Assembly (NCBI GenBank): GCA_963808745.1
Contig: CAWEGX010000019.1
Coordinates: 10,212-74,211 of the forward strand
Length of the DNA stretch: 64,000 nucleotides
Direction of reading: 5' to 3'
From: an uncultured Bacteroidales bacterium
GTDB lineage: Bacteria > Bacteroidota > Bacteroidia > Bacteroidales > UBA10428
Shown here: one piece after another, positions 34,379-64,000 of the stretch
Layout: every line of letters starts with the position of its first letter
How positions within the stretch are numbered: position 1 is the stretch's first letter
Position numbers and translations under genes: made by a program
Notes under the pieces: generated by a model
What the model was told of the DNA's origin: nothing
Seen by the model: the letters and a program-made list of their open reading frames with translations, nothing else
Databases searched by the model: none

Positions 34379-35637
34379 ATGAAAATCAATACATTGTCAT
34401 TTATTTTATTATTATTTCTTTCCGGTTTTATTAATGCGCAGGACATCAGTGAATGGCGTGAAGAAAACCGGACCGGGGTTTCTGCAGAAACCGGACTGTT
34501 AAAATCCTGGCCTGCTGAAGGCCCAACCCTGCTTTGGTCCAATCTTGAGCTCACAAAAGGAAATTCATCGGCTTCCTTTGGAAAAAATAAAATCTATATA
34601 ACCGGATTGAAAGACGGGAACGATATACTTTATGCCCTGGACATGAATGGAAAGATTCTCTGGCAGACAGTTATGGGCAGGGCCTGGACGGATTCATACC
34701 CTGAAAGCAGGGCTACGCCGACTGTTGAAGGGAACATGGTATACACCTGCAGCGGATATGGTGATCTTGCCTGTATTGACGGAACCACCGGAAATATCAT
34801 TTGGTCGTATAAAGCCAGCGAACTGAACAAAGGCACTTATGGGAAGTGGGGCATTGCCGAATCGCTCCTGATCGATGGCGATAAGCTTTATTTTTCACCA
34901 GGAGGGCCTGAGACCATGACCATTGCCCTTAAAAAATCGACACGGGGAACTGATATGGAAATCTGAAAGTCTGAATGACAAGCCAGGATATGTTTCACCA
35001 ATCCTTATCAATTATGCAGGCAGGAAAATGATCGTAAATGTTTCCATGGGACATGTTTTTGCAGTTGATGCTTCAAATGGCGAAATTCTCTGGAAAGTCG
35101 CTCATACACAGTCAACTGATCCCAATATGGGGAGATTTGAACTTATTAAATGCACAACACCCTTATACAATGAAGGTATGGTGTATGTAACCGGAGGTTA
35201 CGACACCGGGGGAATGATGATCAGAATGGCTGCTGATGGAAAGAGCGCAAAAGTAGCCTGGACCGACCAGGTATCTGGATGATCACCATGGAGGTGTTGT
35301 GCTTGTTAACGGATGTATCTACGGTTCAAACTGGGTGAATAACGGCACAGGCAACTGGTGCTGCATTGATTGGAATACCGGGGAAAAAAAGTGGGAACAA
35401 CGCTGGAACTGTAAGGGCTCTATTATATCTGCCGAGGGTATGCTTTATATCTACGATGAAAAAAATGGAAATGTAGGACTGGTGAGGGCTACTCCTGAAA
35501 AATTCGATCTTGTCAGCAGCTTTAAGGTTACCCAGGGAAGTTCAGGGCCATTCTGGGCACATCCCGTAATCCATGACGGTGTTCTTTATTTAAGGCACAG
35601 TAATGCTTTAATGGCTTATGATATTAAGGCAAAATAA
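34379..35637 (+). pseudogene. PQQ-like (BamB/PQQ_2-type) beta-propeller repeat protein P1, secreted; two frame changes
   Basis: Signal peptide, then EWREENRTGVSAETGLLKSWPAEGPTLLW. Blades such as LACIDGTTGNIIW and WCCIDWNTGEKKW. ORFs 34379-34966, 34923-35282 and 35299-35637 join at ~34945 (KKSTGELIWKS) and ~35270 (LDDHHGGVVLVNG). Confidence 0.7.
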
Positions 35638-35714
35638 ACTAATTTGGAATGCAAAACAGAGGCGGGATATTCTAATCCATTACCATATTGTTCAGCAAAA
35701 AACTGAGAGGAGTA

Positions 35715-37046
35715 ATGAAAATGAAAAAGAGTCGTGCCTGTATTCCCATGATTTTCCTGATGGTTTGCATGGCAAATGTTTATGCACAAGACTGGCCGCA
35801 GTATCTTGGGCCCAACAGAAACAGCATATCACCCCAGAAGGGTATCTTGCGTTCCTGGCCTGAAAAGGGACCTGAAGTTCTGTGGACTGCCAGTCTGGGT
35901 ATCGGTTATGGCGGACCTGTTGCGAAGGATGGGAAGGTGTTTTTGCTGGACAGGGATGACCAGGTTGGAGATATGCTGAAGTGTTTTGACCTCTCCGATG
36001 GAAAGGAACTCTGGAATTTTGCTTACAATGCTCCCGGATCGGTAATGTTTCCGGGCTCGCGCAGTGTGCCGGCTATGGACGGCAATTATGTTTATTCCTG
36101 CGGACCTTACGGTGACCTGTATTGCATTGATATCAACACGCACAAACCCGTTTGGAATAAGAATGTCTGGACTGACTTCGGCGGAGCTGAAATTCCGAAA
36201 TGGGCCATAGCACAGTGTCCCCTGGTTTACGGCGATTTGCTCATATTGGCATCACAGGCACCGCAGGCAGGTGTTGTGGCCTACGAAAAGCTCACGGGAA
36301 AAGTCAAATGGTCAACCCCGTCTCTCGGGGAGGTCGGATATGTTACCCCGGCCATGGTAAAAGTTGGCAGTGAGGATCATGTTGTTATGATAACCGCTTC
36401 AGCCGGAGGCGGTTTTGGCAGAACCGGCAGCGGTGGCAAGGTAGTTGGCATTGATCCGCACTCGGGGAAAATCCTGTGGGAGTATACAAACTGGCAATGC
36501 CGTATTCCCGCGCCCTGTGCAATTGATGCCGGTGATAGCCGGATACTGATAACAGGCGGATACGAAGCGGGTGCGTCCTTGATAAAAGTCGGGAAAAAGG
36601 CCGATGGCACCTATGAGGTCACAGAACTTTACAAAAATGCCGATTTTGGTGCTCATACACAGCCCCCGGTCCTGTATAACGGCTTTTTTTATGCTCAATA
36701 TTCCACCAACGAAAGAAAAGACGGTATGGTTTGTATGAGTATTGACGGCCAGATCAAATGGAAAACCGGGAGGGAACCCCTTTTTGATAAGGGGGGGATG
36801 ATCGTCGCCGATGGATTGCTGCTCAGCACAGATGGAATGAATAAGTTATTCCTTATTGAGCCCGATCCTTCAGCCTTTAAAATATTAGCATCAGCTGAAC
36901 TGCTGAAAGAAGGAGGAGTAAGCAGTGACCCTATGGCTTCAAGAGCAGGTGGCTCAACCCAAAACTGGGCACCGATAGCACTTGTGGATGGAAGGATTCT
37001 TATTAGGGATCAGAACCGGTTATTGTGTGTTAAAGTTGCCCAATGA
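35715..37046 (+). CDS. PQQ-like beta-propeller repeat protein P2, secreted
   Basis: Signal peptide MKMKKSRACIPMIFLMVCMANVYAQ, then DWPQYLGPNRNSISPQKGILRSWPEKGPEVLW. Blades LYCIDINTHKPVW and VCMSIDGQIKW. Confidence 0.8.
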   Translation: MKMKKSRACIPMIFLMVCMANVYAQDWPQYLGPNRNSISPQKGILRSWPEKGPEVLWTASLGIGYGGPVAKDGKVFLLDRDDQVGDMLKCFDLSDGKELWNFAYNAPGSVMFPGSRSVPAMDGNYVYSCGPYGDLYCIDINTHKPVWNKNVWTDFGGAEIPKWAIAQCPLVYGDLLILASQAPQAGVVAYEKLTGKVKWSTPSLGEVGYVTPAMVKVGSEDHVVMITASAGGGFGRTGSGGKVVGIDPHSGKILWEYTNWQCRIPAPCAIDAGDSRILITGGYEAGASLIKVGKKADGTYEVTELYKNADFGAHTQPPVLYNGFFYAQYSTNERKDGMVCMSIDGQIKWKTGREPLFDKGGMIVADGLLLSTDGMNKLFLIEPDPSAFKILASAELLKEGGVSSDPMASRAGGSTQNWAPIALVDGRILIRDQNRLLCVKVAQ

Positions 37047-39505: not shown

Positions 39506-40066
39506 ATGGACGAAGCTAAAAAAATGAAGAGAAGGGACTTTCTCAATACGGGCATCAGGCTGGGTATTGGGGCCGGATTGGGAGCCATTGCCGTAGGTCT
39601 TACCTCCAGGGCCGTATCAGGTCAGACCATCTGGCAGCTCGACCCATCGAAGTGCGTGCAGTGCGGCAATTGTGCAAAATCCTGTGTATTGCAGACATCA
39701 GCCGTAAAGTGCGTGCATGTTACCGATATGTGCGGGTATTGCGATTTGTGCAGTGGTTACCTTCATGCAGGTACCAAGGAGCTGAATACGGCAGCTGAAA
39801 ACCGGCTTTGCCCTACCGGTGCAATTGTAAGGACTTATGTGGAAGAGCCTTATTTCGAATACAAAATTGTGGAAGAATTGTGTAATGGCTGCGGTAAATG
39901 CGTAAAGGGCTGCGGATCATTTGGCAATGGTTCACTGCAACTTCAGATTCAGCAGAAACTTTGCCTGAACTGCAACCAATGCGCTATAGCCAGGTCATGT
40001 CCTTCTGAGGCATTCAGCCGGGTTGATCACAAAACCCCATATCTTCTGAAAGGGTTTGAAGGTTAA
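39506..40066 (+). CDS. Tat-exported poly-[4Fe-4S] ferredoxin (NapG/NosG-like)
   Basis: Twin-arginine signal KRRDFLNTGIRLGIGAGLGAIAVGLTS. Cys motifs CVQCGNCAKSC, CGYCDLC, CPTGAI, CNGCGKCVKGC and CLNCNQCAIARSCP. Confidence 0.8.
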   Translation: MDEAKKMKRRDFLNTGIRLGIGAGLGAIAVGLTSRAVSGQTIWQLDPSKCVQCGNCAKSCVLQTSAVKCVHVTDMCGYCDLCSGYLHAGTKELNTAAENRLCPTGAIVRTYVEEPYFEYKIVEELCNGCGKCVKGCGSFGNGSLQLQIQQKLCLNCNQCAIARSCPSEAFSRVDHKTPYLLKGFEG

Positions 40067-40121
40067 AAAAAATAAGATCCGGATTTATGAATCATATAAA
40101 CGAAACCAATATAAAGTAACC

Positions 40122-41414
40122 ATGAAGCGCAAGGCCCAATTTTTTACGCTGATGTTGGTTATTTCCCTGCTGGCCTATAATGTGCTCGCTATCCAGAGAT
40201 TCCCCAAGCCTGAATTTGAAAGCGGGTATAAAGTTCCTGCCACGCAGGTAACCAGGGTGCAACACGTAATTTTTGAATACATGGACCTTGTTGTATTTAT
40301 AGGCTGCATGTCACTGATCACCTGGATTATTCTGAAAAAACGTTCACGTAAGGCTGTATTCTGGATCTCGGTTTTCTCATTGCTGTATTTCGGATTTTAT
40401 AGAAAGGGCTGTATTTGTCCCGTCGGATCACTGCAAAATATTACCATGGCGCTGTTCAACCCCCATTACAACATACCTGTTACAGCGATTGCTTTTTTTG
40501 TAATTCCTTTGGGTTTTACCCTGTTTTTTGGACGTACTTTTTGCGCCGGTGTTTGCCCGTTGGGAGCCATACAGGATCTGTTTGCGCTCCGGCCTGTGAG
40601 CCTTAAACCCTGGATCAGATATCTGCTTGGACTTATTCCGTTCATTTACCTGGGCCTGGCAGTATTGTATGCTGCCACCGGCACGGACTTTATTATCTGC
40701 CGGTATGATCCGTTTGTCGGCTTTTTCAGGCACAATGGCACATCCCTTATGTTTGTCATCGGCGGTGTTTTATTACTGACCGGTATCTTTATTGCCCGAC
40801 CCTATTGCCGGTTCTTTTGCCCCTACGGTGTTCTGCTCAACCTGGTCAGCCGCGTTTCACGCCGACATTTGTCCATTGCCGACGGAAAGTGTATCAACTG
40901 CAAATTATGTGAAAATGCATGCCCCTATGATGCCATTGATAAGCCCACCGGCCTTGGTGCAAAAAACGACAACAGGGAACTTGTTAAAAAGCTGATAGTC
41001 TATGGTTTAATAACACCACTGCTGGTTGTTTTAACCGGATGGACCGTATCAAAATATCACGCTGAGTTTTCACACGTGAATTTTAAGGTCAGGCTTGCTC
41101 AGGAAATGATGACTCAGTCTGCAAATGCTGAAACCGGTATTGTTCCTGTTGAAGTTACTACCTTCAAATCTTCGGGTGTGCCGGTTGAAAATCTTTATAA
41201 GGAAGCGGCTGCCATTGTTCAGAAATTTTACACAGGAAGTTGGATTATAGGTTGTTTCATCGGCCTGGTTTTCGGATTGACTCTTGCAAGGCTCACCATA
41301 TTCAGGTACCGGAATGAATACCTGGCCAATAAAGGGAATTGTTATAGCTGTGCAAGGTGTCTGGAGTATTGTCCCGTGAAAAAGGGACCGGGGACCGGGG
41401 TTAGGGATTGGTAG
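40122..41414 (+). CDS. integral-membrane Fe-S protein (NapH/NosH/MauN/RdhC-like polyferredoxin)
   Basis: Multiple TM helices. CICP, FCAGVCPLG and YCRFFCPYG (CxxxCP) motifs, plus CINCKLCENACP and C-terminal CYSCARCLEYCP ferredoxin motifs. Start taken at ATG 40122 because the track start at 40056 is TTG. Confidence 0.75.
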   Translation: MKRKAQFFTLMLVISLLAYNVLAIQRFPKPEFESGYKVPATQVTRVQHVIFEYMDLVVFIGCMSLITWIILKKRSRKAVFWISVFSLLYFGFYRKGCICPVGSLQNITMALFNPHYNIPVTAIAFFVIPLGFTLFFGRTFCAGVCPLGAIQDLFALRPVSLKPWIRYLLGLIPFIYLGLAVLYAATGTDFIICRYDPFVGFFRHNGTSLMFVIGGVLLLTGIFIARPYCRFFCPYGVLLNLVSRVSRRHLSIADGKCINCKLCENACPYDAIDKPTGLGAKNDNRELVKKLIVYGLITPLLVVLTGWTVSKYHAEFSHVNFKVRLAQEMMTQSANAETGIVPVEVTTFKSSGVPVENLYKEAAAIVQKFYTGSWIIGCFIGLVFGLTLARLTIFRYRNEYLANKGNCYSCARCLEYCPVKKGPGTGVRDW

Positions 41415-41577: not shown

Positions 41578-43380
41578 ATGACCACAGAAGTCAGACAATA
41601 CAAATATGGAAGCGACCGGTTGTGGAACCGTATCGCAGTGGTGGCAGGCATTTTTGCCCTGCTGATCTGTGTTTTGCTGGTGGCCAATTACATCCAGGTA
41701 AAAAAATCCGACCCTGTTAACATGACAGTCATTAACACTCTGGTGGAAAGACTTTATGAAAATCCTGCCGATTCAGCATTGCGAAAAGAAATCAGAACAC
41801 TCGACCTGCTATCGCGCAAAGCCTATTTTACCAGTCAGTGGCAGATACGTACCGGTGGTTATCTTTTGCTGGCATCGATAGCTTTAATGATCATATCATT
41901 ACAGGTTGTCGAATACAGGAGAAAAATATCCCCGGTTCTGTCCACGGATACCGTAGATGAAACCATGCTCCAGAACCGGAAAGCCCGGAAGTGGATAGTG
42001 ATGGGCGGAGGTGTCATTTTGCTGACTGCTGTGGTTTTTGGCGTACTCTCCTCTAATGACCTGGCAGACAAGTTCAACAGCCTGAGCGGGGGAAACGGGG
42101 GCTCTTTTGAACAGGATATTGAGGCCGGGGATATTACCGTGACAGACCTGGCAGCCGGCACCCCGGATACTGCCAATGGCCCGGCAGGAGCAGCGGAAAC
42201 AGCAGATACGGCAGTTGCTGCTCCGGCCGGATCAACGCCGGCAGTCAGCACCGACAATTTCCCCAATTTCAGGGGTACAGGAGGGGTTGGCATAGCATCA
42301 AAAAGAAATATTCCTGTCAGCTGGGATGGAAAAGCAGGTACAAATGTCCTGTGGAAAGCCGCTATTCCTTTACCCGGTCATAACTCACCCATAGTATGGG
42401 GTGACCGGGTTTTTATTGCAGGTGCCAATGGCAGCAAACAGGAGGTTTATTGCTACGATCGCAATAATGGAAAAATACTTTGGACCACCCCGGTGGGAAC
42501 AGGCACTAAAAAGCCGAAAGTTTCCGAGGAAACCGGATTCGCTGCCCCGACTGCAGTTACGGATGGCACCGGAGTTTATGTCATATTTTCAACGGGTGAT
42601 ATTGTCGGAATTGATATGAATGGCAAAAAGATCTGGGAAAGAGACCTCGGGCTGCCTGAAAATTATTACGGACATTCTTCTTCATTAATGCTATATAATG
42701 GAAGTATCATTGTTCAATTTGATCAGCGATCCTCCCAGAAGATAATGGCCCTCTCTGTAAAAACCGGAAAAAACGTCTGGAGCACCGATCGCCAGTGTAA
42801 AATTTCATGGTCATCACCCATTGTGGTAAATACAGGCAAAAAGACAGAAATAATTACGGTGGCGGAGCCCAATGTGACAGCCTATGATCCGGCAAACGGG
42901 GCAGAATTGTGGAAGATCGAATGCATCAGCGGAGAGGTGGGACCATCGCCTGCATATGCCAACGGGATCGTTTTTGCGGTAAATGATTATTCAAAACTAA
43001 GCGCGATCAGGCTGGGCGATCAGCCAACCCTTTTATGGGAAAATAACGAATTCCTTTCGGATATTCCCAGTCCGGTTGCCACAGACAAGTACCTGTTTAT
43101 TGCAACCAGCTATGGAATGGTTGCCTGTTATGATGCTGTAACCGGACAGAAATACTGGGAAAAGGATTTTGGCAAAAGTATATATTCCTCACCCATGATC
43201 GTTGAAAACAAGGTGTATGTCCAGGACATTACAGGTATAATGCACATTTTCAGTGCAGGCAAAGAATTCAAATTAATCGGTGAGTCAAAGCTCGGTGAGT
43301 ATTCAGCAAGCACCCCTGCATTCACAAACGGAAGAATTTATATCCGCGGGGAAGAGAACCTTTATTGTATTGGAAAATGA
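41578..43380 (+). CDS. PQQ-like beta-propeller repeat protein P4 with 3-TM N-terminal domain and Ala/Thr/Pro-rich linker
   Basis: TM segments IAVVAGIFALLICVLLVANYI, GGYLLLASIALMIISLQVV and WIVMGGGVILLTAVVFGVL. Linker GTPDTANGPAGAAETADTAVAAPAGSTPAV. NFPNFRGTGGVG...NVLW and blades VYCYDRNNGKILW and VACYDAVTGQKYW. Confidence 0.8.
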   Translation: MTTEVRQYKYGSDRLWNRIAVVAGIFALLICVLLVANYIQVKKSDPVNMTVINTLVERLYENPADSALRKEIRTLDLLSRKAYFTSQWQIRTGGYLLLASIALMIISLQVVEYRRKISPVLSTDTVDETMLQNRKARKWIVMGGGVILLTAVVFGVLSSNDLADKFNSLSGGNGGSFEQDIEAGDITVTDLAAGTPDTANGPAGAAETADTAVAAPAGSTPAVSTDNFPNFRGTGGVGIASKRNIPVSWDGKAGTNVLWKAAIPLPGHNSPIVWGDRVFIAGANGSKQEVYCYDRNNGKILWTTPVGTGTKKPKVSEETGFAAPTAVTDGTGVYVIFSTGDIVGIDMNGKKIWERDLGLPENYYGHSSSLMLYNGSIIVQFDQRSSQKIMALSVKTGKNVWSTDRQCKISWSSPIVVNTGKKTEIITVAEPNVTAYDPANGAELWKIECISGEVGPSPAYANGIVFAVNDYSKLSAIRLGDQPTLLWENNEFLSDIPSPVATDKYLFIATSYGMVACYDAVTGQKYWEKDFGKSIYSSPMIVENKVYVQDITGIMHIFSAGKEFKLIGESKLGEYSASTPAFTNGRIYIRGEENLYCIGK

Positions 43381-45725
43381 CAGATAATCTGGAATATAAG
43401 GTCGACAATCTGGTTCAGGAAATAGGGTCCACTCCCGATAAGGTTATTCCTATTCTTCAGGCTATTCAGAAGGAGTTTAATTACCTTCCCGAAGAAGCCC
43501 TGAAAAGGGTTTGTGAAACAACTTCCATACTGCCTTCGTCCATCCATGGCATCGCAACATTCTATTCCCAGTTCAGGCTCAAACCGGTTGGAAAACACAT
43601 TGTAAAGGTGTGTGTTGGCACTGCCTGTCATGTGAAAGGTTCCATGCTTGTATATGAGGCTTTTCAACGGGCACTTCACCTGGAAGGAAAAGAGGATACG
43701 GATTCAAAAATGCTGTTTACCATGGAGAAGGTTGCCTGCCTCGGCTGTTGCACCCTTGCCCCGGTTGTTCAGATAGATGAAGTAACCTATGGCCATGTGG
43801 GTACAGAGCAGGCAGATGAGATCCTGCAGGATTTTTTGAACAGGAAGCATCATTCTGTGGTTTCCAAATCCTCTGTTTCACTTAAAACCAGGGCTTCGCA
43901 GGGTGAAGTGCGCATTGGTCTCGGATCATGCTGTATTGCCAGCGGAAGCCAGGCCGTAAAACTGGCGCTGGAGGAAGCTTTAGAGCAAACCCATATCAAT
44001 GTTCAGGTTAAGCAGGTAGGTTGCGTAGGCATTTGTAACCAGGTGCCTGTTCTTGAAATCCATAAAGAAGGAGAATCACCCGCCATATATGCCAAAATCA
44101 AACCTGAAGAGGTAAGGGAGGTAATCAAACATCACTTCAGCCCCGTTAATCTGGCCGACAAAGCCAAAGCCGGTGTCTACAATTTTTTTGACACCCTGGT
44201 AAACAGGGAAATTCCAAGATCGCTCACCTATTACAATCCTGAAAAGAAAGATACGCTGTTTTCGGAATTTCTTTCGTCGCAGGTAAGCATTGCCACGGAA
44301 TTCAGGGGGGAACTGAAACCGGGAGATCTGAATGAATACCAATCCAAAGGAGGCTTCAGTGCCCTGCATACATGCCTGCACAAATCAAATCCCGCGGAAG
44401 TAATTTCCATCATCAGCAACAGTGGACTGAGGGGCAGAGGGGGAGCCGGTTTCCCTACCGCATCAAAATGGAAACTGGTTAACCATGCAAAAGCGGATGT
44501 CAAATATGTGATCTGCAACGGAGATGAAGGCGATCCCGGCGCTTTCATGGACCGCATGCTGCTTGAGTCGTATCCGTACAGGATCATAGAGGGTATGATG
44601 ATTGCTGCCTATGCCACCGGGGCAAGCGAAGGCATTTTTTATATCCGTGCAGAATATCCGCTTGCAGTAAAGCGAATTCGTGAGGCCATCGCCTTGTGCA
44701 AACAGGAGGGATTGCTGGGGACCGGTATCTTGAATAGTTCATTTGCCTTTGATATAAGCATTTTTGAAGGAGCGGGGGCATTTGTGTGCGGCGAGGAAAC
44801 AGCCCTGATCGCCTCTATTGAAGGGAAACGGGGACTGCCCACCATGCGTCCACCCTACCCGGCTGAAAAAGGCCTGTGGGGTAAGCCAACCCTTATCAAC
44901 AATGTGGAAACCCTGTCGCTTGTTTCATGGATCATCCGACACGGCGATGAGGCATTTCAGAAAATCGGCACTCCCAACAGCAAAGGCACCAAGGTTTTTG
45001 CCCTTGCAGGAAAAATAAACCGCGGCGGATTGATTGAGGTGCCCATGGGTATCACCATCCGGAAAATTGTTGAGGAAATCGGAGGGGGAGTTCCCAACGG
45101 ACGCACCTTTAAAGCCATTCAGATAGGCGGTCCTTCCGGAGGCTGTATTCCCGCATCAATGGCGGATATCCCCATTGACTATAACTCACTTAAGGAAGCA
45201 GGGGCCATGATGGGATCAGGAGGGCTCATCGTACTGGATGATACTGATTGCATGGTTGATATTGCCAGGTATTTCCTGTCCTTCACACAAAACCAGTCGT
45301 GTGGCCGATGCACATTCTGCAGGATCGGTACCACCCGCATGCTGCAGATACTCGATAAGATATGCTCCGGAAAGGGAACCGAAACCGATCTGGGCCTGCT
45401 GGAAGAGCTGGCACACAGCACCAAAACCGGAAGCATGTGCGGACTGGGCAAGTCGGCCCCAAATCCGGTCCTGACCACCATCCGGTATTTCCGGGAGGAA
45501 TATATGGCACATATTAACGGGCATTGTCCGACCGGGAAATGCAAGAATCTGATCACCTATACCATCACGGAAGATTGTATTGGGTGTACCAAATGTGCCC
45601 AGCGGTGCCCATCCCAGGCTATTGAAGCAAAACCCTATGAGGTGCATGTGGTTGACAATGAAAAATGTATTAAATGCGATATATGCAGGGAGGTTTGTCC
45701 TGTGCAGGCTGTAATTACCCGTTAG
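43377..45725 (+). CDS. NuoE-NuoF fusion flavoprotein (HydC/HydB-, HndA/HndC-like) with extra thioredoxin-like and 2x[4Fe-4S] domains
   Basis: NuoE-like VCVGTACHVKG...CLGCCTLAPV. Second Trx-like Fe-S segment GLGSCCIASG...GCVGICNQVPV. NuoF motifs GRGGAGFPTASKW, ICNGDEGDPGAFMDR, SCGRCTFCRIG and MCGLGKSAPNP. C-terminal CIGCTKCAQRCP and CIKCDICREVCP. The ATG overlaps the upstream stop (ATGA at 43377-43380). Confidence 0.85.
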   Translation: MTDNLEYKVDNLVQEIGSTPDKVIPILQAIQKEFNYLPEEALKRVCETTSILPSSIHGIATFYSQFRLKPVGKHIVKVCVGTACHVKGSMLVYEAFQRALHLEGKEDTDSKMLFTMEKVACLGCCTLAPVVQIDEVTYGHVGTEQADEILQDFLNRKHHSVVSKSSVSLKTRASQGEVRIGLGSCCIASGSQAVKLALEEALEQTHINVQVKQVGCVGICNQVPVLEIHKEGESPAIYAKIKPEEVREVIKHHFSPVNLADKAKAGVYNFFDTLVNREIPRSLTYYNPEKKDTLFSEFLSSQVSIATEFRGELKPGDLNEYQSKGGFSALHTCLHKSNPAEVISIISNSGLRGRGGAGFPTASKWKLVNHAKADVKYVICNGDEGDPGAFMDRMLLESYPYRIIEGMMIAAYATGASEGIFYIRAEYPLAVKRIREAIALCKQEGLLGTGILNSSFAFDISIFEGAGAFVCGEETALIASIEGKRGLPTMRPPYPAEKGLWGKPTLINNVETLSLVSWIIRHGDEAFQKIGTPNSKGTKVFALAGKINRGGLIEVPMGITIRKIVEEIGGGVPNGRTFKAIQIGGPSGGCIPASMADIPIDYNSLKEAGAMMGSGGLIVLDDTDCMVDIARYFLSFTQNQSCGRCTFCRIGTTRMLQILDKICSGKGTETDLGLLEELAHSTKTGSMCGLGKSAPNPVLTTIRYFREEYMAHINGHCPTGKCKNLITYTITEDCIGCTKCAQRCPSQAIEAKPYEVHVVDNEKCIKCDICREVCPVQAVITR

Positions 45726-45726
45726 A

Positions 45727-47340
45727 ATGATCCATCTTAAAATAGACCATATCGACATACAGGCCGAAGAAGGCACTACCGTGCTGGAGGCAGCGAGGCA
45801 GGCTGGTATCATAATACCTTCCATGTGCCATATGAAGGGATATGGTAATCATCCCGCCTGCATGGTATGCCTTGTAAAAGATAATAAGTCCGAAGCCATT
45901 GTTCCATCCTGCTCGCTGAAAGTAACTCCCGGCATGGATATCATTGCCAGCGATGAAGAAGTGATGACCGCCCGCAGGCAGGCCCTGGAACTGCTTCTCA
46001 GTGACCATGCAGGTGATTGTGAAGCACCCTGCAGCCTGGCATGTCCCGCCGGAATGAACATTCCCCTGATGAACCGGCTTATTGGTGAAGGAAGGTTCAC
46101 CGAGGCACTCAGCGTAGTTAAGGATGATATAGCCCTGCCCTATGTGCTGGGTTATATTTGTCCGGCCCCCTGCGAAAAAGCCTGCCGGCGCAAACAGATT
46201 GATGACGCCGTGTCGGTATGCCTTTTAAAACGATTTTCTGCAGCGGCCGGCATTGATCAGAAATCAATCTCCGCTTCCCGAAAGTTGAATACTCCTTCCC
46301 CGGGCGTTACCAAAAAAGTAGCTGTCATTGGCAGCGGCCCTGCCGGATTGGCAGCAGCCTATTACCTGCAATTATACGGACACGTATGCACCGTATTCGA
46401 TAAAGCTCCGGAGCCCGGTGGCACGCTTCGTTACAGCATACCAGAAGAGGAACTGCCCAAAAACATTATTGACCGGGAGGTTGAAATAATCCGGTCGATG
46501 GGAGCAACCTTTCGTTTTAATGCACCTGTCACCGAACAAATATTCAACGCTGAGATAAAAGGCGCCTATGACGCTGTTGTTATTGCCACAGGCGATATAA
46601 CTATTGATAACAGCCTGGTAAACCTCATTGCTGTTTCAAAATCAGGATACCAGGTGAATGAAAAGAATATGAGCTCATCCGTGCCCGGCATCTACGTTTG
46701 CGGAAGCGCAATCAGGCCACATAAAATGGCTGTGCGATCTGTAGCCCAGGGCAAGACAGCAGCTGACGCAATTCATCAATACCTGCAGGCACAACCGTTT
46801 GAAAAACCCGGAAAGATGTTCAACTCCAGGTTTGATAAACTGTTGCCGGTTGAATTTGAAGAATACCTGAAGGAATCATCACGATCAGGCAGAGTCCTCC
46901 CGGGGGCAAAGACTGAGGAGGGCTTTTCACCGGATGAGGCCGTCAGGGAAGCCCTGCGATGTTTGCATTGTGACTGCCGCAAACAGGATAACTGTAAACT
47001 CAGGATTTACAGCAATGAATACCATATTGACCGCAGGCACTATATGGTCGGTGACCGCAAGGCGATGACCAAACAAATGCAGCATGACCTGATTATTTAT
47101 GAACCTGAAAAATGCATTAAGTGCGGATTATGTGTTGAGATCAGCAGCCTGGAGGGTGAAAAATTCGGGATGGCATTTGAAGGCAGGGGATTTGATGTTG
47201 TTGTCAATACCCCTATAGGAATTAACTTCAGTGAGGGTTTGACGCATACCGCAGTAAAATGTGCCGCGGCCTGTCCCACGGGAGCACTGGCACTAAGGGA
47301 CAAGTATGCAAATATTCATCTAAATAAGCAGACAAAATGA
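45727..47340 (+). CDS. chimeric Fe-S flavoprotein: NuoG/HydA-type N-terminal [2Fe-2S] + GltD-like Fe-S/FAD domain + NuoG-like [4Fe-4S] C-terminus
   Basis: N-terminal HLKIDHIDIQAEEGTTVLEAARQAGIIIPSMCH...CMVC. GltD-like CEAPCSLACPAGMNIP...YICPAPCEKACRR and VAVIGSGPAGLAAAYYL...FDKAPEPGGTLRYSIP. GIYVCGSA. C-terminal CLHCDCRKQDNCKL and CIKCGLC...CPTGAL. Confidence 0.75.
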   Translation: MIHLKIDHIDIQAEEGTTVLEAARQAGIIIPSMCHMKGYGNHPACMVCLVKDNKSEAIVPSCSLKVTPGMDIIASDEEVMTARRQALELLLSDHAGDCEAPCSLACPAGMNIPLMNRLIGEGRFTEALSVVKDDIALPYVLGYICPAPCEKACRRKQIDDAVSVCLLKRFSAAAGIDQKSISASRKLNTPSPGVTKKVAVIGSGPAGLAAAYYLQLYGHVCTVFDKAPEPGGTLRYSIPEEELPKNIIDREVEIIRSMGATFRFNAPVTEQIFNAEIKGAYDAVVIATGDITIDNSLVNLIAVSKSGYQVNEKNMSSSVPGIYVCGSAIRPHKMAVRSVAQGKTAADAIHQYLQAQPFEKPGKMFNSRFDKLLPVEFEEYLKESSRSGRVLPGAKTEEGFSPDEAVREALRCLHCDCRKQDNCKLRIYSNEYHIDRRHYMVGDRKAMTKQMQHDLIIYEPEKCIKCGLCVEISSLEGEKFGMAFEGRGFDVVVNTPIGINFSEGLTHTAVKCAAACPTGALALRDKYANIHLNKQTK

Positions 47341-48471
47341 TGATTGGTAACCGGCAAACGGTAAAAGTTCTTGTTTTGTTGGCCGCCCTGGTGCTTCCTG
47401 CCAGGATCTCAGCTCAGAATATGACCAATTCCTGGCCTATATTCCGCGGTGACCAGGGATTGAACGGAAATACTGCGGCTGTCATTCCCAAATCACCGAA
47501 AGTGGCATGGGTCTCAAAAATGGCAGGTGGTACCAAATCTTCCCCGGTCATTGGCAATAACTGCGTTTTTATCGGATCTGACGATGGTGTATTATATTGC
47601 CTTTCCCTTGCGGGCAAATCAAACTGGACATTTAATACCGGCCATGCCATCGAAGCCCCTCCCATGGTCAGCGACAATACGGTCTATATTGGAACGCTTG
47701 AAGGGGAATTGTTTGCCGTGGATATTAAAACAGGTAAGAAACGCTGGATGTATCAGACAGAGGGTCAGATTTCCGGATCGCCCAACTATTTCATGTCTGG
47801 AACATCCAAAAAGATTATTGTCGGCAGCTATGATTATTCTTTGCATTGTATAGATGATGCCACAGGAAAATCCGATTGGAAATACACATCGGATAATTAT
47901 ATTAATTGTGCGCCGGCCGTTTCAGGCAAAGTAACCGTTTTTGGCGGTTGCGACGGCAACCTCCATGTAGTTAACCTTGCCACCGGCAAGGTGAATTACA
48001 AGATTAACATGGGCACCTATATCGCGTCATCCAGCACGTTATCGGGTAACCAGGCCTTTCTTGGCGACTATGACGGGCAATTTTTTTGTGTGGATTACAT
48101 GACGAAAAAACTGGTGTGGGAACAGTCCGGCGGAGGATCTTTTGTTTCATCCCCTGCAGTATCAGGAAGCCATGTAGTTATCGGCTCAGAGAACCGGATT
48201 GTTTTTTGCTATAACAAGGCAGATGGCAAGGTACTCTGGCGGTTCAAAACCCTGGGGAAAATAACGGGATCTCCTGTCATTGCAGGAAACAAGGTGGTTA
48301 TTGCTGCCGGAGACGGCAGACTTTATATAATTGATCTGAAAACCGGAACCAAAAGCTGGACATATGAACTGGGCAGTCCTTCGAGCAGCACGCCGGCTGT
48401 TGTCACAAAACCTGCTGGTGATCGCTACCGATGATGGCCGTATTTTTGGTTTTAATCTTATTCAAAAATAG
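47337..48471 (+). pseudogene. PQQ-like beta-propeller repeat protein P5, secreted; frame change at an A4 run near the 3' end
   Basis: Signal peptide VLVLLAALVLPARISAQ. WPIFRGDQGLNG. Blades LYCLSLAGKSNW, LHCIDDATGKSDW and FFCVDYMTKKLVW. After acaaaacc (~48408) the natural C-terminus NLLVIATDDGRIFGFNLIQK* is in the next frame. The ATG overlaps the upstream stop (ATGA at 47337-47340). Confidence 0.75.
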
Positions 48472-48472
48472 G

Positions 48473-48878
48473 ATGGCTGATCAAATTTCCAAACATATCC
48501 TTTTCTGCCACTGCGGAGGAGAGAGGATCCATCCGGGTTACCCGGTTTGGTTACCGGGCATCTGAAAAAATTACCCGTTGAGGTTACGGGATTGTCTGAT
48601 CTCTGCGGATTAGCAGCAAAAAGTAGTGGTTTGCTAACAGATCTGTTCAACAGGGATACTGAATACCTTGTTCTCGGGTGCTATCCGCGCATATTTCGCC
48701 CGGATTGCTTACGGAAATAGACAGGAGCATCCATATGGCCATGGGTTATCTTACAAAACACCAATCTTCCAGAGTTGCCTGGCTCCCCCTCTGGTTCGGC
48801 AACCAGCTGGCCACGGATAAAACTAACCCGGTATATGGAACCGCCAAGGTTTGCATATATCACGGTCACGTTAAATAA
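48473..48878 (+). pseudogene. degraded Cys-rich small ORF(s); function unknown
   Basis: ATG lies 2 nt after the P5 stop. The product MADQISKHILFCHCGGERI... continues in other frames as LKKLPVEVTGLSDLCGLAAKSSGLLTDLFNRDTEYLVLGCYPR, and then as ...AWLPLWFGNQLATDKTNPVYGTAKVCIY...*, which ends 1 nt before the GTPase ATG. Confidence 0.3.
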
Positions 48879-48879
48879 A

Positions 48880-49974
48880 ATGATAGCTATGACTCAATTA
48901 ATATTTGTTGGCGGATTCCTTGGTGCCGGTAAGACAACCCTGCTTCATGAAGTAACACGCAGGCTGATTTCGAAAGGCACACGGGTAGGGCTCATTACCA
49001 ACGACCAGGCACCTGACCTGGCTGATACCGCTTTGCTTAAACATGACTATGTGAATGTTGCCGAAGTGACCGGAAGCTGTTTCTGCTGCGATTTTAAAGG
49101 ATTACGCAGGGCCATCGACAATGTTGGCCAACACCTGAAAACCGATATAATTATTGCAGAACCCGTCGGCAGCTGCACCGATTTATCGGCTACACTCGTC
49201 AATCCCATTAAAGAAATGATGAAAACAGAGGTTTCGGTGTGCCCCCTCACTGTTTTGGTGGATCCCGGGCGATTAAAGGACATCCTGGATGGAGGAACGA
49301 CAGGCCTGCATCCTGCGGCGGCCTATATTATTAAAAAGCAACTTGAAGAGAGTGATATAATTGCCATTACAAAATCCGATCTATATGAATCCGCTGAAAT
49401 CACTGAATTATCCCGAAGGCTGAAAGAAAACTTTCCGGATTGCGAAATCAGGGCCATCAGTGCCAAAACCGGTGAGGGCATTGATGACTGGCTGGAATAT
49501 GTATTAAAAGGTGAAGATGCCGGTAAACACATCGTGGAAATTGATTATGACAAATATGCCGAGGGGGAAGCGGTACTGGGCTGGCTTAACTGTTCCGCTT
49601 CATTGTCAGGCCATGAAACAGACTGGGATGTCTTTACACGCGAATTTATGCAGGCTCTGGCGGCAGAATTTGATGCCAATGGCACACCCGTAGGACATGT
49701 GAAAATGATTGTGGAAAACGGGGATCAGTACATTTCCTCCAATTTAACCGGCCATGCAGAAACGCTCACGTTCAGATGGTCTGCCGGTTCAGGCAACCAG
49801 GCGGAAATGATCGTGAATGCCCGCGTACAGATGTCGCCAAAGGACCTGGAACAGGTATTTTTAAGTACACTGGAGTCCATAACAAAGGACCGGATAAAAA
49901 CCCGGATCAACAGAATCAGGAGTATAAGCCCCGGATATCCAAACCCCACACACAGATATAAGAATAGAGTCTAA
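48880..49974 (+). CDS. G3E-family P-loop GTPase (CobW/HypB/UreG-type metallochaperone-like)
   Basis: P-loop GGFLGAGKTTLL. Cys motif GSCFCC. IIAEPVGSCTDL, and ITKSDL (NKxD-like). The start MIAMTQL at 48880 is preferred over the track start at 48775. Confidence 0.75.
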   Translation: MIAMTQLIFVGGFLGAGKTTLLHEVTRRLISKGTRVGLITNDQAPDLADTALLKHDYVNVAEVTGSCFCCDFKGLRRAIDNVGQHLKTDIIIAEPVGSCTDLSATLVNPIKEMMKTEVSVCPLTVLVDPGRLKDILDGGTTGLHPAAAYIIKKQLEESDIIAITKSDLYESAEITELSRRLKENFPDCEIRAISAKTGEGIDDWLEYVLKGEDAGKHIVEIDYDKYAEGEAVLGWLNCSASLSGHETDWDVFTREFMQALAAEFDANGTPVGHVKMIVENGDQYISSNLTGHAETLTFRWSAGSGNQAEMIVNARVQMSPKDLEQVFLSTLESITKDRIKTRINRIRSISPGYPNPTHRYKNRV

Positions 49975-50013: not shown

Positions 50014-51261
50014 ATGAAAGCCTCCATGAAAACTTCGCAGATGATCAGAACAGGATTGTTTTGTTTTTTTTCAATCCTGTGCAGTATTCCGGGACTGACG
50101 CAGGATTGGCCTCAATGGCGGGGACCAAACCGTGATGGTATAATTTCAGGATTTAATGCGCCCAAGGCATGGCCGCAACAGCTTACCACGGCGTGGAAAA
50201 TAACTGTCGGCCTGGGTGATGCGACTCCTGCGCTTGTAAAGAACAAGCTGTATGTTTTCACGAGATTGAATGATCTGGAGAAATTACAATGCATTGACGC
50301 TGAAACAGGTAAGCAATTGTGGATTACCGATGGATATTCAACGCCGGTTCTCACAGGAGGTGGATCCAGGCATCCCGGTCCCCGGAGCTCACCTGTTGTA
50401 ACCGATAACAGGATAGTTACGATAGGAGTTGCCGGTGTTGTCACCTGCTATGATGTAAATACGGGAAAGGTTCTCTGGCAAAACAATGAATTCACTGCTT
50501 CAATTCCCAAGTTTTACTTTGGTGGCTCACCCCTGGTGGTTGACGGACTTTGCCTGGTACATTTCGGGATTGAAAATGCCGGGCAATATGTAGCCTTCGA
50601 TATGACAAACGGGAGTGTGAAATGGAAAACGGAAGGTGATGGACCGGGTTATTCTTCCCCGGTCATCATGGCGGCAGATGGAGCTAAAATGGCTGTATTC
50701 CAGGGCGACACCAGGCTTGTGGGTATTAATATCGCGGATGGTAAAATTCTTTGGAATATGAACACCCCTGTTCCTGAAGGTGTCAGGGCAGTCAGCTCAA
50801 CAAGTCCGGTTATAGATAACCAGACAGTATTCTACACCGGATTGGGCAACGGGGTAAATGCCATTGAAATCAAGACATTTGGTGATATTTTTACAGTCAG
50901 ACAATTGTGGACAAATCCGGATCTGTGCACCGAATTCAGTACTCCTGTTATTAAAAATGGCTTTCTCTTTGGCTTGTCTAAAACCAATAAACTGTTTTGC
51001 ATCAATGGAAGGGACGGAAAAACAGCATGGGTTGATACAGTCGCACACCAGAATTTTGGTTCAATCCTGGGTGTCGGCAGTGTTATTGTCGCGCTATCGA
51101 GTACTTCAAACATGATGGTGTATATACCTGTTGATACAGGATATTACCAGCTGGCCAGGATAAAGGTTGCGGAAACACCGGTATACGCTCATCCGGTTTT
51201 ATCGGGAAACCGTATCTTTATAAAAGATGAAAATTCGTTGATTTTATACACACTTCAATAA
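50014..51261 (+). CDS. PQQ-like beta-propeller repeat protein P6, secreted
   Basis: Signal peptide, then QDWPQWRGPNRDGIISGFNAPKAWP. Blades LQCIDAETGKQLW, VTCYDVNTGKVLW and LFCINGRDGKTAW. Confidence 0.8.
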   Translation: MKASMKTSQMIRTGLFCFFSILCSIPGLTQDWPQWRGPNRDGIISGFNAPKAWPQQLTTAWKITVGLGDATPALVKNKLYVFTRLNDLEKLQCIDAETGKQLWITDGYSTPVLTGGGSRHPGPRSSPVVTDNRIVTIGVAGVVTCYDVNTGKVLWQNNEFTASIPKFYFGGSPLVVDGLCLVHFGIENAGQYVAFDMTNGSVKWKTEGDGPGYSSPVIMAADGAKMAVFQGDTRLVGINIADGKILWNMNTPVPEGVRAVSSTSPVIDNQTVFYTGLGNGVNAIEIKTFGDIFTVRQLWTNPDLCTEFSTPVIKNGFLFGLSKTNKLFCINGRDGKTAWVDTVAHQNFGSILGVGSVIVALSSTSNMMVYIPVDTGYYQLARIKVAETPVYAHPVLSGNRIFIKDENSLILYTLQ

Positions 51262-51278: not shown

Positions 51279-52589
51279 ATGTCATTGAGAATTGCACATA
51301 TCATTCCGGGCTCGGGCGGGAGCTTTTATTGCGGCAATTGCCTGCGCGACAGCAAGTATTTTGATGCCCTTCGCAAAATGGGACATGACGTGATAAAAAT
51401 TCCCATGTACCTGCCCATTTTTTCCGATGAACATGATTTGAGCGATGTTCCCGTATTTTACGGGGCCGTAAGCATCTACCTCAAACAGTTAATGCCGCTA
51501 TTCAGAAAAGCCCCGAAATGGGTTGACTCACTGCTGAATTCAAAACCGATGCTGAAATATGCCGCTTCCAAGGCAGGCAGTACAAGGGCAAAAGGATTGG
51601 AGGAGATGACCATTTCCATGCTCCAGGGGGATAAAGGCAAACAGCACGAAGAGCTGGAACGGATGACCGATTGGATGAAAGATCACTTCAAACCCGATGT
51701 GGTGCACCTTTCCAATGCACTGCTCCTGGGACTTGCTCCAAAACTGAAGGAGAAACTGAAGGTACCTGTTGTATGTTCCCTGCAGGATGAAGATGTATGG
51801 GTTGACATCATGAGCGATCGGAACAGGAAAAAAGTCTGGGACCTGATGGCCGAAAACGCTGAATATATCGACCGTTTCATATCTGTGAGCCGGTATTATG
51901 CCGATATTTCTGTCGGAAAAATGAGCATATCCCCTGATAAAATAACCACCATCCATATAGGTGTGGATCCCTCTGATTACGATTACCGGAACTCAAGGGA
52001 AAAGGCACGGGCAATTGGTTATATTTCCAGGATGTGCTATGAAAACGGACTTGACATACTGGTAGATGCCTTCATCCTGTTAAAAAAACAAAAGGCATTT
52101 GACGATCTCAAGCTCATTATTACGGGAGGCCAGACAGGGGATGACAAACCCTACCTGAAACTCATCAGAAAAAAGCTGGACAGGAATGGACTGCTTTCTT
52201 CGGTGGATTTTCATAAAGATTTTGAAGGTTGCGGCAGAAAAGCATTTTTCTCGAAAGCGTCTGTAATTTCAGTTCCTGTGCGAAATGGCGAGGCCTTTGG
52301 CATATATATAGCCGAATCGCTGGCATCGGGAATTCCGGTCGTGCAGCCCGCCCTGGGTGCATTCCCCGAAGTACTGGCCACCACCGGGGGTGGAATTATT
52401 TACGGGGAAAACAATCCCGAAGCGCTCTCATCAGCCCTGAAGCAGCTTCTGGACGATCCTGTGGGACTAATGCATCTAAGTGAAGAAGCCCGGAAAGGAG
52501 CCGAACAGCACCTGAGTATAAATGAACTGGCCAAAGAACTTATTAAAGTGTATACCGGAGTAATCTCCTTAAAAACCCGTACCCATTAA
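51279..52589 (+). CDS. glycosyltransferase family 4 (GT-B, group 1)
   Basis: EAFGIYIAESLASGIPVVQPALGAFPEVL, the canonical GT1/GT4 E(x7)E region. N-terminal SGGSFYCGNCLRD. Confidence 0.75.
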   Translation: MSLRIAHIIPGSGGSFYCGNCLRDSKYFDALRKMGHDVIKIPMYLPIFSDEHDLSDVPVFYGAVSIYLKQLMPLFRKAPKWVDSLLNSKPMLKYAASKAGSTRAKGLEEMTISMLQGDKGKQHEELERMTDWMKDHFKPDVVHLSNALLLGLAPKLKEKLKVPVVCSLQDEDVWVDIMSDRNRKKVWDLMAENAEYIDRFISVSRYYADISVGKMSISPDKITTIHIGVDPSDYDYRNSREKARAIGYISRMCYENGLDILVDAFILLKKQKAFDDLKLIITGGQTGDDKPYLKLIRKKLDRNGLLSSVDFHKDFEGCGRKAFFSKASVISVPVRNGEAFGIYIAESLASGIPVVQPALGAFPEVLATTGGGIIYGENNPEALSSALKQLLDDPVGLMHLSEEARKGAEQHLSINELAKELIKVYTGVISLKTRTH

Positions 52590-52679
52590 TCACAATTAAA
52601 ATTTATAAACATGAAAAGCTACTCTATTATCAATTCTGATTTGTATTATTTATTTTCAAAATATATCAAACCCCTTAAA

Positions 52680-60081: not shown

Positions 60082-60210
60082 CAGATTTTCAGGGTTCGAT
60101 ATTACGTCGCGCTTAAAATCCGCAAATATGCTAATGATAACCTGAATAAAACAGAGGTCTGGATAAAAGAATTACCCCCAGGCCATGGAAAAAAGTACAG
60201 GATTATAAAA

Positions 60211-60967: not shown

Positions 60968-60985
60968 CGCTTTTTACCGGTATAA

Positions 60986-63627: not shown

Positions 63628-64000
<373 letters not shown>

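Follow-up and report, generated by a model that had tools for sequence, protein, structure and literature searches.

The locus described here raises the question of what a soluble look-alike of the complex I N-module is doing in the midst of genes for membrane-bound and exported proteins. It lies in a stretch of 64,000 nucleotides (the window; GenBank assembly GCA_963808745.1, contig CAWEGX010000019.1, forward-strand positions 10,212 to 74,211) from an uncultured Bacteroidales bacterium of the GTDB lineage UBA10428, in which the plus strand from ~35.7 to 53.9 kb is an uninterrupted run of genes (Table 1). Two of these, here called A and B, encode proteins with no hydrophobic segments, whereas signal peptides or membrane helices are found in the products of the genes on either side. 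The stop codon of the gene for P600, a 600-residue membrane propeller, overlaps the start of gene A as ATGA (43377-43380); gene A ends with TAG at 45723-45725 and is separated by 1 nt from the ATG of gene B at 45727; and a second ATGA (47337-47340) overlaps the stop of gene B with the start of P365, a 365-residue propeller. As set out below, A and B are very probably a modified member of the Bfu family of electron-bifurcating enzymes that is dedicated to a system of propellers and NapGH-like iron-sulfur (Fe-S) proteins.

The preliminary description of this DNA saw in gene A a NuoE-NuoF fusion in the HydC plus HydB layout with an extra Fe-S segment and two C-terminal ferredoxin motifs, and the Pfam and NCBIfam matches bear this out, all of the extra cluster ligands being present. 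Pfam assigns residues 11-152 to 2Fe-2S_thioredx of the NuoE type (cluster C1; E 8e-50), 346-516 to Complex1_51K, the FMN/NADH domain of NuoF (E 6.7e-46), 628-712 to NADH_4Fe-4S, the region of the B1 (N3-type) cluster (E 4.5e-31), and 732-780 to Fer4_21, the two [4Fe-4S] clusters B3/B4 (E 4e-11), with two CxxCxxCxxxCP motifs at residues 734-774; NCBIfam adds a second thioredoxin-like [2Fe-2S] segment (B2) at ~184-255. The ligand cysteines and histidine are all at least 90% conserved among 84 orthologs, including those of the BfuC cluster (C79/C84/C121/C125), of the N-terminal [2Fe-2S] cluster of BfuB (C185/C186/C216/C220) and of the N3-type cluster (C642/C645/C648/C688). H712/C717/C722, conserved in the same set, are a candidate B5-type His/Cys site between B1 and B3/B4, a site that holds a cluster, or Zn in solved NfnB. 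The best match in the PDB is NfnB of Thermococcus sibiricus (9n5u_B, E 1e-207, residues 178-779 against 7-592), and others are NfnB of Caldicellulosiruptor (9bov_B), StnB of Sporomusa (8oh5_B) and HydB (7q4v_B), with NuoF of complex I at far lower scores. In comparison to the NfnABC/StnABC enzymes of C. saccharolyticus (9bov), Sporomusa ovata (8oh5) and T. sibiricus (9n5u), gene A thus matches the full B subunit (E 1e-200 to 1e-210) and has the C subunit added as an N-terminal fusion. Since the B2-B5 sites are absent from non-bifurcating homologs (PMC9304861), gene A is by its sequence a complete Bfu-type core with BfuC and BfuB in one chain, for which bifurcating activity is predicted. The fusion itself is also found in some ordinary Nfn-Bfu loci of Firmicutes and is not peculiar to the propeller system.

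Gene B has as its best solved relatives Caldicellulosiruptor NfnA (9bov_A, E 3e-90), Sporomusa StnC (8oh5_C) and T. sibiricus NfnA (9n5u_A). Pfam assigns residues 1-72 to Fer2_4, a NuoG/HydA-type [2Fe-2S] domain, and 98-174 to Fer4_20, a GltD/DPD-type segment with two [4Fe-4S] clusters; an FAD-type Rossmann fold (190-341) and a NuoG-like region with two [4Fe-4S] clusters (408-522) follow, and each of these parts is shared with NfnA/StnC. In HMMER alignments residues 2-289 match 4-286 of 9bov_A and residues 274-522 match 419-672, leaving ~130 residues of NfnA without a counterpart; gene B residues ~2-289 correspond to ~4-289 of all three solved chains, and the alignment past the gap resumes at ~425 in 8oh5_C and less cleanly in 9n5u_A. 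The absent ~130 residues are the NADP(H) subdomain with its GGGNxAMD and YRR motifs, as found by HMMER, MAFFT and structure superposition. An AlphaFold model made with 30 diverse family members as input is confident (pLDDT 88.6, pTM 0.87), with a dip to ~65 at residues ~289-296, and superposes on 9bov_A with a template-modeling (TM) score of 0.84 over 689 alignment columns for the 537-residue query, ~150 of them gap columns. Gene B ends at about residue 685 of the 1172-1178-residue solved subunits, where a ~500-residue FdhF-like domain starts; alignment to the solved subunits shows that this domain, which bears two further clusters and is the tetramerization domain in StnC, is absent from gene B. 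The earlier reading of gene B as a NuoG/HydA-type start, a GltD-type Fe-S and FAD segment and NuoG-like C-terminal clusters agrees with the Pfam and PDB alignments, and its observation by eye that the second, NADPH-binding, Rossmann subdomain is missing is upheld by the alignment to 9bov_A/8oh5_C and by the model, which confirm the domain boundaries and leave no intact NADPH subdomain.

On the basis of these alignments gene B is a descendant of the NADPH-oxidizing subunit of NfnABC/StnABC. The automated annotation of gene B as a ferredoxin or an NADPH-dependent glutamate synthase beta-subunit-like oxidoreductase would imply an Nfn-type transhydrogenase, an assignment that is doubtful because the NADPH domain is missing; without that subdomain and the FdhF-like domain gene B should not be filed as an Nfn transhydrogenase, even though it descends from one. 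Its best NCBIfam match is the PRK12814-type protein (NF009454, E 1.6e-118), a short NfnA of ~657 residues found beside BfuBC in Firmicutes, Chlorobi and Spirochaetes that has the same domain order and likewise is without the FdhF-like domain. However, the score is 397 bits against a cut-off of 916, gene B is ~120 residues shorter, and PRK12814-type proteins keep GGGNTAMD, YRR and the GltD loop in loci that are without propellers.

A shortened gene of this kind might be taken for a decaying or mis-assembled truncation of a GltD-like gene, but 354 intact short forms, conserved Fe-S cysteines and the confident model dispose of a pseudogene, which can be set aside almost with certainty because the length of gene B holds while identity falls to 35%. 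The best 120 clusters of gene B at 90% identity are nearly all 498-542 residues long, apart from four fragments of 406-468 residues. Among the best 150 clusters at 50% identity, from a search that covered 1.84 billion representatives, single-stretch matches of 480-560 residues number more than 110 and reach down to 35% identity; forms of 630-710 residues come only lower in the list. The short form of gene B is, to judge from these lengths, a genuine family and not a truncation. Among the longer proteins, a 1133-residue protein (P0143) has the short form fused to a complete second GltD-like unit with its NAD(P)H domain, and in a 951-residue protein (P0152) its fusion partner is a URO-D-like domain; reuse of the NADPH-less module in other systems is therefore possible. 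One fusion of B with a propeller among them is most likely a frameshift artefact and was not taken as genuine.

Conservation within the family distinguishes what has been retained from what has been released. The Fe-S cysteines of gene B together with G202/G204/G207 are invariant in 30 diverse short forms, and the cysteines are at least 90% conserved in 103 orthologs. When 354 short forms are compared with 10 long forms, the GxGxxG motif is present in 100% of both, and the acidic residue after beta2 that binds the ADP ribose in 99% of short and 100% of long forms. The Lys equivalent to K170 of StnC, a ligand of the flavin-proximal cluster, is likewise kept (77% short, 70% long; K168 in the window). 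In contrast, the Arg equivalent to StnC R239, a residue near the flavin N5 (PMC10482914), is found in 12% of short against 100% of long forms and is Glu242 in the window, and the Pro of the YGIP motif in 42% against 100%. The Asp of the GD motif occurs in 8% of short and 10% of long forms; 60% of the latter have Glu, generic Nfn-Bfu enzymes have Asp, and gene B of the window has Ser. It thus appears that the Fe-S wire and the dinucleotide pocket are under selection in the short forms and the hydride-transfer chemistry is not, gene B having apparently kept the Fe-S chain and the ADP-binding half of a putative FAD site and lost the NADP(H) subdomain together with the residues that tune hydride transfer.

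Intermediate stages of this loss can be found. Long-form B genes occur within the propeller system in L107 (P600-A-B-GT4, the last a family 4 glycosyltransferase), L112, L113 (Acidobacteriota) and L115 (Verrucomicrobiae), in L111 (Planctomycetota; ferredoxin, NapH-like, P600, A, B, GT4) and in L114 (Planctomycetales; P37, NHL, ferredoxin, NapH-like, A, B), whereas the 70-odd long-form loci that remain (L116-L190; Firmicutes, Chlorobi, Spirochaetes and others) simply pair BfuB(C) with NfnA and have no propellers. The NADPH subdomain is intact in L109, L113-L115 and all of the generic loci, where GGGN(S/T)AMDA(A/C)RT, YRRT, the LGEPDxSGRxRPVP loop and GGD are kept; it is degenerate in L105-L108, L111 and L112, where the fold survives without the glycine-rich motif, YRR and the loop; and it is deleted in the window and about 100 other loci. 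Outside the propeller system, in L116-L190, the NADPH motifs are never lost. This series suggests that the propeller/NapGH system took over an Nfn-type Bfu enzyme, in which NADP(H) binding would then have become dispensable and been lost.

The setting to which gene B appears to have been recruited is highly conserved. Gene calls around distant homologs and tblastn of the window proteins on 104 loci give the recurring order P37, NHL, Tat (twin-arginine translocation) ferredoxin, NapH-like protein, P600, A, B, P365-type propeller, GT4, ABC (ATP-binding cassette) ATPase and a ~1100-residue duplicated FtsX. Among the 65 loci with at least 9 kb of upstream flank, A precedes B in 62, P600 in 61, the NapH-like gene and the ferredoxin in 59 each, NHL in 54 and P37 in 51, and exactly the same upstream order is found in 49; downstream, where 63 loci have at least 8 kb of flank, P365 is found in 54, GT4 in 46 and FtsX in 42. 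Carriers belong to Bacteroidota, Aminicenantes, Lentisphaerota, Armatimonadota, Calditrichota, Planctomycetota, Kiritimatiellia, Verrucomicrobiota, Spirochaetota, Firestonebacteria and Hydrogenedentota. Orthologs of the A/B chimera therefore keep the neighbors that were first seen in the window, with identical order in those 49 loci. B, P365, GT4 and FtsX are also found in four Bacteroidales/Prolixibacteraceae loci (L057, L059, L070, L072) in which no A or conduit genes were detected within 10 kb upstream, so that the system may be split there. A 303-residue NmrA/epimerase-like NAD(P)-binding Rossmann protein is encoded between A and a short B in a metagenome-assembled genome (MAG) of Fimbriimonadaceae (L076:9088-9999, plus strand) and could supply a nucleotide site in trans, and an extra ~270-residue Fer4-domain protein follows the downstream propeller in two Phycisphaerae MAGs (L088:14018-14845, L081:11534-12334). 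Pfam searches of the unmatched open reading frames (ORFs) in distant loci yielded only lineage-specific extras (the Fer4 protein in Phycisphaerae, DUF1559 pseudopilin-like, LptF/G, Cas9) and no shared accessory gene that would hint at a substrate.

The ATGA overlaps had been taken to argue for translational coupling across compartments, a claim that stands in part. Tight spacing is frequent: the P600-to-A junction is 20 nt or less in 47 of 69 loci (ATGA-type 17, any overlap 26), the A-to-B junction in 59 of 88 (ATGA-type 9, any overlap 13), with the 1-nt spacer of the window recurring in about 24 of the 88, and the B-to-P365 junction in 23 of 39 (ATGA-type 5, any overlap 13), some large junction values being artefacts of frameshifted genes. 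The specific overlap, however, is not conserved; close packing is the rule and the ATGA overlaps are confined to nearer relatives. Bacterial operons often have such overlaps, and a single ATGA carries no significance on its own, whereas gene order over many phyla exceeds chance, and the conserved operon with its NapGH-like conduit is stronger evidence for a cross-compartment link than the overlaps.

This conduit, a Tat-exported polyferredoxin and a NapH-like gene in the same operon, had been overlooked in the preliminary description, as had the solved relatives NfnABC and StnABC and the stages of NADPH-domain loss in sister lineages; it would provide a physical electron path between A/B and the exported proteins. 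The ferredoxin bears a twin-arginine motif, RRDF, and its 17 conserved cysteines would suit four [4Fe-4S] clusters; among 67 orthologs conservation is at least 90% for R9, R10, F12 and the Cys motifs, and no NapG/MauM models are among its NCBIfam matches at E <= 1e-3. The membrane protein, whose likely start is M23 at about 40122, has 7-8 hydrophobic segments, two CX3CP and two CxxCxxCxxxCP motifs, with C163/C167, C251/C255, C279-C289 and C429-C439 conserved. It matches the NapH model TIGR02163 with 42.5 bits (E 5e-11) against a cut-off of 213 and so does not reach the curated family score. The [4Fe-4S] clusters of E. coli NapH reportedly lie in the cytoplasm, and the same topology is assumed here. 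No heme motif (CxxCH) is found anywhere in the cluster, for which reason a cytochrome-based conduit was rejected, and no nap, nos or mau structural genes are present in it, nor any nap genes in the related loci that were annotated. The pair thus resembles NapGH, NosGH and MauMN in setting a Tat-exported four-cluster ferredoxin beside a polytopic protein that carries CX3CP and [4Fe-4S] motifs, two of each, and differs from them in its lower than curated scores, in the absence of nap, nos and mau genes, and in a membrane protein with a C-terminal extension and extra helices; a partnership of such a pair with a Bfu head is undescribed.

In NfnABC/StnABC the clusters form a chain FAD-A7-A6-A3-A2-A1-B1/FMN (PMC11829005; PMC10482914), and Bfu cores are known to plug into Fe-S wires, with attachment to membrane modules predicted (PMC12318220; PMC9304861). 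The C-terminal two-cluster domain of gene A is the place of ferredoxin binding in the solved relatives. NADP(H) would no longer be the third substrate of A/B. Instead, the FAD/proximal-cluster end of B, laid bare by the deletion, would trade electrons with the NapH-like protein, whose gene is the third upstream of B, at its cytoplasmic [4Fe-4S] clusters. From there the path would lead through the four-cluster ferredoxin exported by Tat to the propeller and NHL proteins of the periplasm, both membrane-anchored and soluble. The direction would most likely be outward, with NADH and reduced ferredoxin oxidized together (confurcation, as in HydABC), because in a Bfu core NAD(H) and ferredoxin are coupled to a third redox couple, and the periplasm would then offer a sink for fermenters. 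Tight or overlapping junctions and a fixed order would help to provide matched amounts of cytoplasmic, membrane and exported parts. The best overall reading, held to be true by a slight preference, makes A/B a Bfu head that is connected to the periplasmic propellers by way of the NapGH-like pair; the electron link through the NapGH-like pair, taken by itself, is as open to denial as to assertion.

A number of points weigh against this reading. The contact of B with the NapH-like protein is putative; the carriers in the genome scans are all MAGs, although two protein matches bear isolate names (Marinilabiliaceae bacterium JC017 and Ancylomarina sp.); FAD binding by B is only putative in view of the N5 Arg and GD Asp frequencies in short forms given above; and the periplasmic proteins are without a recognizable redox cofactor site beyond a few conserved cysteines. 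Furthermore, L113-L115 have the propeller system and yet an apparently intact NADPH site, so that in those loci A/B could be an ordinary soluble Nfn-type transhydrogenase and the data do not require a membrane link. Extended to the whole family, this last point becomes a different explanation in which there is no electron link at all: A/B would be a soluble NADH:ferredoxin-type or Nfn-like enzyme that is merely co-transcribed, its B flavin meeting a soluble partner such as a small molecule, GT4 or an NAD(P) protein in trans. The NmrA/epimerase-like gene between A and B in L076, and the position of GT4 directly after B in long-form loci (L105-L107, L111), speak in the same direction. Nevertheless it is an improbable explanation: a Bfu core with NADH and ferredoxin sites alone has no third reaction to couple, the order with Tat ferredoxin and NapH-like protein is kept in 59 of 65 loci over more than 10 phyla, and the generic Nfn-Bfu loci never lose the motifs that are lost here.

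Canonical NapH is a quinol dehydrogenase, and the quinone pool could therefore be the real partner. In that case the A/B head and the membrane protein together would form an NADH/ferredoxin:menaquinone oxidoreductase, with the exported ferredoxin and the propellers drawing on quinol separately, an arrangement that is possible but unlikely; it could work either by confurcation or by a bifurcation of NADH in which ferredoxin and quinone are the acceptors, as with Fix/EtfABCX and the predicted Nuo-Bfu. The NapH/MauN family and Fer4_5 are indeed the best matches of the membrane protein, and quinone has already been proposed as a third substrate of Bfu enzymes (PMC9304861). However, the score of the membrane protein falls far below the NapH cut-off, as noted above, and at least four propeller/NHL genes locked in operon order across phyla would be left unexplained.

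What the periplasmic proteins do with electrons may be sought in their most conserved member. P37 is 57-60% identical in loci where B is ~50% identical, and 52 orthologs share the invariant polar motifs KRNHGMSRTxPA, GPRCxVMC, WYTGQCP, KMSHSS and SEQQTP, which suggest an active site. Its AlphaFold model (pLDDT 86.9) has as nearest folds BamB and, at matching size, tetrathionate hydrolase (TM 0.58/0.61), eight-bladed PQQ_2-type propellers without PQQ (pyrroloquinoline quinone), and Pfam PQQ_2 repeats match as well; a match to the tetrathionate hydrolase profile is weak (E 1.4e-4) and out of register. P37 differs from BamB in being ~120 residues larger, membrane-anchored and possessed of its own invariant polar motifs, though its homologs are named only BamB or PQQ-binding-like. 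All of the propellers score 27-145 bits against the BamB model TIGR03300, short of the equivalog cut-off of 285; sequence searches of the PDB with P37, NHL and P600 found nothing beyond matches at the level of repeats, weak ones to quinoprotein dehydrogenases and others to eukaryotic NHL domains. A vicinal Cys pair, GCCNP (C245-C246), is invariant in 58 orthologs of the NHL protein. Other conserved propeller cysteines, apart from C183 and C217 of P37 and C205 of P365, are mostly at a repeated blade position (xxCxDxxtGxxxW), and a propeller-bound Fe-S cluster was rejected for this reason. Because of the P37 polar motifs, the fold like that of tetrathionate hydrolase and the NHL Cys pair, thiol or sulfur chemistry at the periplasmic end is suggested as a lead, not a finding.

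A rival reading is inward flow, in which the propeller/NHL proteins would oxidize a low-potential substrate such as reduced inorganic sulfur, electrons would pass by way of the ferredoxin and the NapH-like protein to B, and A would bifurcate them to NAD+ and ferredoxin. The enzyme fold nearest to P37 besides BamB is that of a cofactor-less periplasmic sulfur enzyme, and Bfu enzymes are reversible, the characterized members using a mid- or low-potential third donor, e.g. H2, formate or aldehydes (PMC9304861; PMC11829005). This direction is nonetheless given rather little weight, as the tetrathionate hydrolase match has the weakness just described and no cofactor that would oxidize a donor is evident in the propellers. 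Carriers belong mostly to lineages known as fermentative heterotrophs, to which a sink seems more useful than a lithotrophic donor. With flow taken as outward, a more complete picture can be drawn tentatively, though it is more doubtful than the wiring itself: an envelope-spanning redox machine of anaerobic heterotrophs, in which a quinone- and heme-free NapGH-like conduit would feed cofactor-less propeller/NHL enzymes acting on an external acceptor, possibly of the sulfur or polysulfide type.

Comparison to known systems places A/B within the Bfu family rather than outside of it. NfnABC/StnABC loci are soluble three-gene units, whereas A/B stand in an operon with membrane and exported proteins. 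WorABCSL and the predicted Mbh-Bfu and Nuo-Bfu are similar in that a BfuBC core is attached via the Fe-S chain of BfuA to a third-substrate module, which is a membrane complex in Mbh-Bfu and Nuo-Bfu (PMC12318220; PMC9304861); the module here is instead a NapGH-like pair with cofactor-less propellers, not a tungsten enzyme, hydrogenase or complex I arm, and the BfuA of the window, gene B, unlike theirs still has a relic flavin domain. The third substrates that have been classified are H2, formate, NADP+, F420, aldehydes, pyruvate, CO, aryl-CoA, H2O2 and quinone, in a scheme of 57 clades in which 17 have no assigned substrate (PMC9304861), and no NapGH- or propeller-linked type is found in that classification or its supplement. 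Full-text literature searches for a NapH-like protein combined with NuoEF, or for a propeller, NuoF and 4Fe-4S combination, found no relevant paper. The Bfu family, NfnABC/StnABC and NapGH being known, A/B are a new variant within them, and the envelope system may be a new kind once its chemistry is known.

Table 1. Genes and sites of the propeller cluster and its immediate surroundings, in window coordinates.
Feature	Position	Strand	Basis
Frameshifted paralog of exported PQQ_2-type propellers, at upstream edge of cluster	34379-35640	+	tblastn against window propellers; 195-aa ORF matches Pfam PQQ_2
Exported PQQ_2/BamB-like propeller with signal peptide	35688-37046	+	Pfam PQQ_2, E 2.6e-21
P37, propeller anchored by N-terminal membrane helix	37064-38497	+	Conservation in 52 orthologs; AlphaFold model
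NHL-repeat propeller anchored by N-terminal membrane helix	38502-39494	+	Weak Pfam NHL match; PDB matches are NHL domains
Tat-exported polyferredoxin, NapG architecture	39506-40066	+	Pfam Fer4 families
NapH/NosR/MauN-like polytopic membrane Fe-S protein	40056-41414	+	Pfam Fer4_5 x2, 60.5 bits
P600, three N-terminal hydrophobic helices, then exported PQQ_2 propeller	41578-43380	+	
Gene A, fused BfuC (NuoE-like, residues 1-160) and BfuB (~178-782)	43377-45725	+	
Gene B, reduced NfnA/StnC-type BfuA	45727-47340	+	
Junction in gene B (residues ~289-296), site of the ~130-residue NADP(H) Rossmann subdomain in relatives	46591-46614	+	HMMER and MAFFT alignments
P365, exported PQQ_2 propeller of 8-blade size with signal peptide	47337-48434	+	Pfam Beta-prop_ACSF4, 218 bits, and PQQ_2
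CobW/HypB-type GTPase, metallochaperone-like	48775-49974	+	Pfam cobW
Further exported PQQ_2-type propeller	50014-51261	+	NCBIfam BamB/PQQ models, below cut-off
GT4 glycosyltransferase	51279-52589	+	Pfam
Further exported PQQ_2-type propeller	52611-53936	+	NCBIfam BamB/PQQ models, below cut-off; core flanked by paralogs in many loci
Duplicated FtsX/MacB-type ABC permease, 1109 aa	53965-57294	-	Pfam FtsX; gene calls also in L001 and L003
ArsP_1-family permease, similar to SaoE and SO_0444 Cu/Zn efflux proteins	57272-58309	-	
LolD/MacB-type ABC ATPase, partner of FtsX permease	58309-58977	-	

Other genes of the cluster show varying degrees of attachment to it. The frameshifted propeller paralog at the upstream edge is spread over three reading frames with two apparent frameshifts, and is either a pseudogene or affected by sequencing errors; the likely start of the propeller that follows is an MKMKK motif a few codons into the ORF, and a propeller is found at the same position in many loci. 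GT4 comes after B or P365 in most loci. It carries a conserved N-terminal FYCGNCLRD (C18, C21) with H143 and C166, residues that are unusual for GT4 and could form a metal or redox site. The CobW/HypB-type GTPase is a lineage-specific insert, found only in the close relatives L004, L008, L022 and L026. The FtsX permease is on the same strand as the core in most other loci and on the opposite strand in the window, where the ArsP_1 permease separates it from its ATPase; in other loci the ATPase directly precedes FtsX. GT4, FtsX and the ATPase gave generic matches only in NCBIfam and the PDB.

A scan of 34.1-54.0 kb found no excess of promoter-like sites (33 against 34.4 in shuffled sequence) and somewhat more terminator-like sites than in shuffled sequence (32 against 21.0, standard deviation 4.3), the sole noteworthy one being a GC-rich hairpin followed by T residues at 48533-48545, between P365 and the CobW/HypB-type GTPase. 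Rfam gave no matches in the whole window and so no riboswitch hint of a ligand. Farther away, the minus strand at 19418-23593 encodes a streptopain-like (Peptidase_C10) protein of 1391 residues that has an Inhibitor_I69 prodomain, a PPC domain and, at the C-terminus, a sorting domain for type IX secretion, which fits Bacteroidota; glycoside-hydrolase-like genes lie at 4496-6976 (GH95-like), 29859-31835 (DUF2961) and 60986-63550 (six-hairpin glycosidase-like). Outside of the cluster (1-34000 and 58000-64000) the GC fraction per 2-kb window ranges from 0.32 to 0.50, with 0.32 at 18-20 kb and 0.34 at 22-24 and 28-30 kb.

The third substrate is the basis on which Bfu enzymes are classified, and the branch represented by A/B has discarded the ancestral NADPH site and appears to hand its electrons to a membrane conduit instead. 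The intact, degenerate and deleted forms of the NADPH subdomain would make it a clean case of domain loss after recruitment to a new role. If the wiring is true, the Bfu family would be extended from soluble metabolism to electron transport across the envelope, fermentative bacteria would have a new electron sink, and the cytoplasmic clusters of a NapH-type protein would have their first identified donor; the question of the role of these clusters in NapH and NosR is made testable by a candidate cytoplasmic donor encoded in the same operon. The finding should be of high interest to specialists in anaerobic bioenergetics. The cluster occurs in many lineages from sediments and bioreactors, which span more than 10 phyla, and its periplasmic chemistry could be a significant and unrecognized electron sink or source in anoxic habitats.

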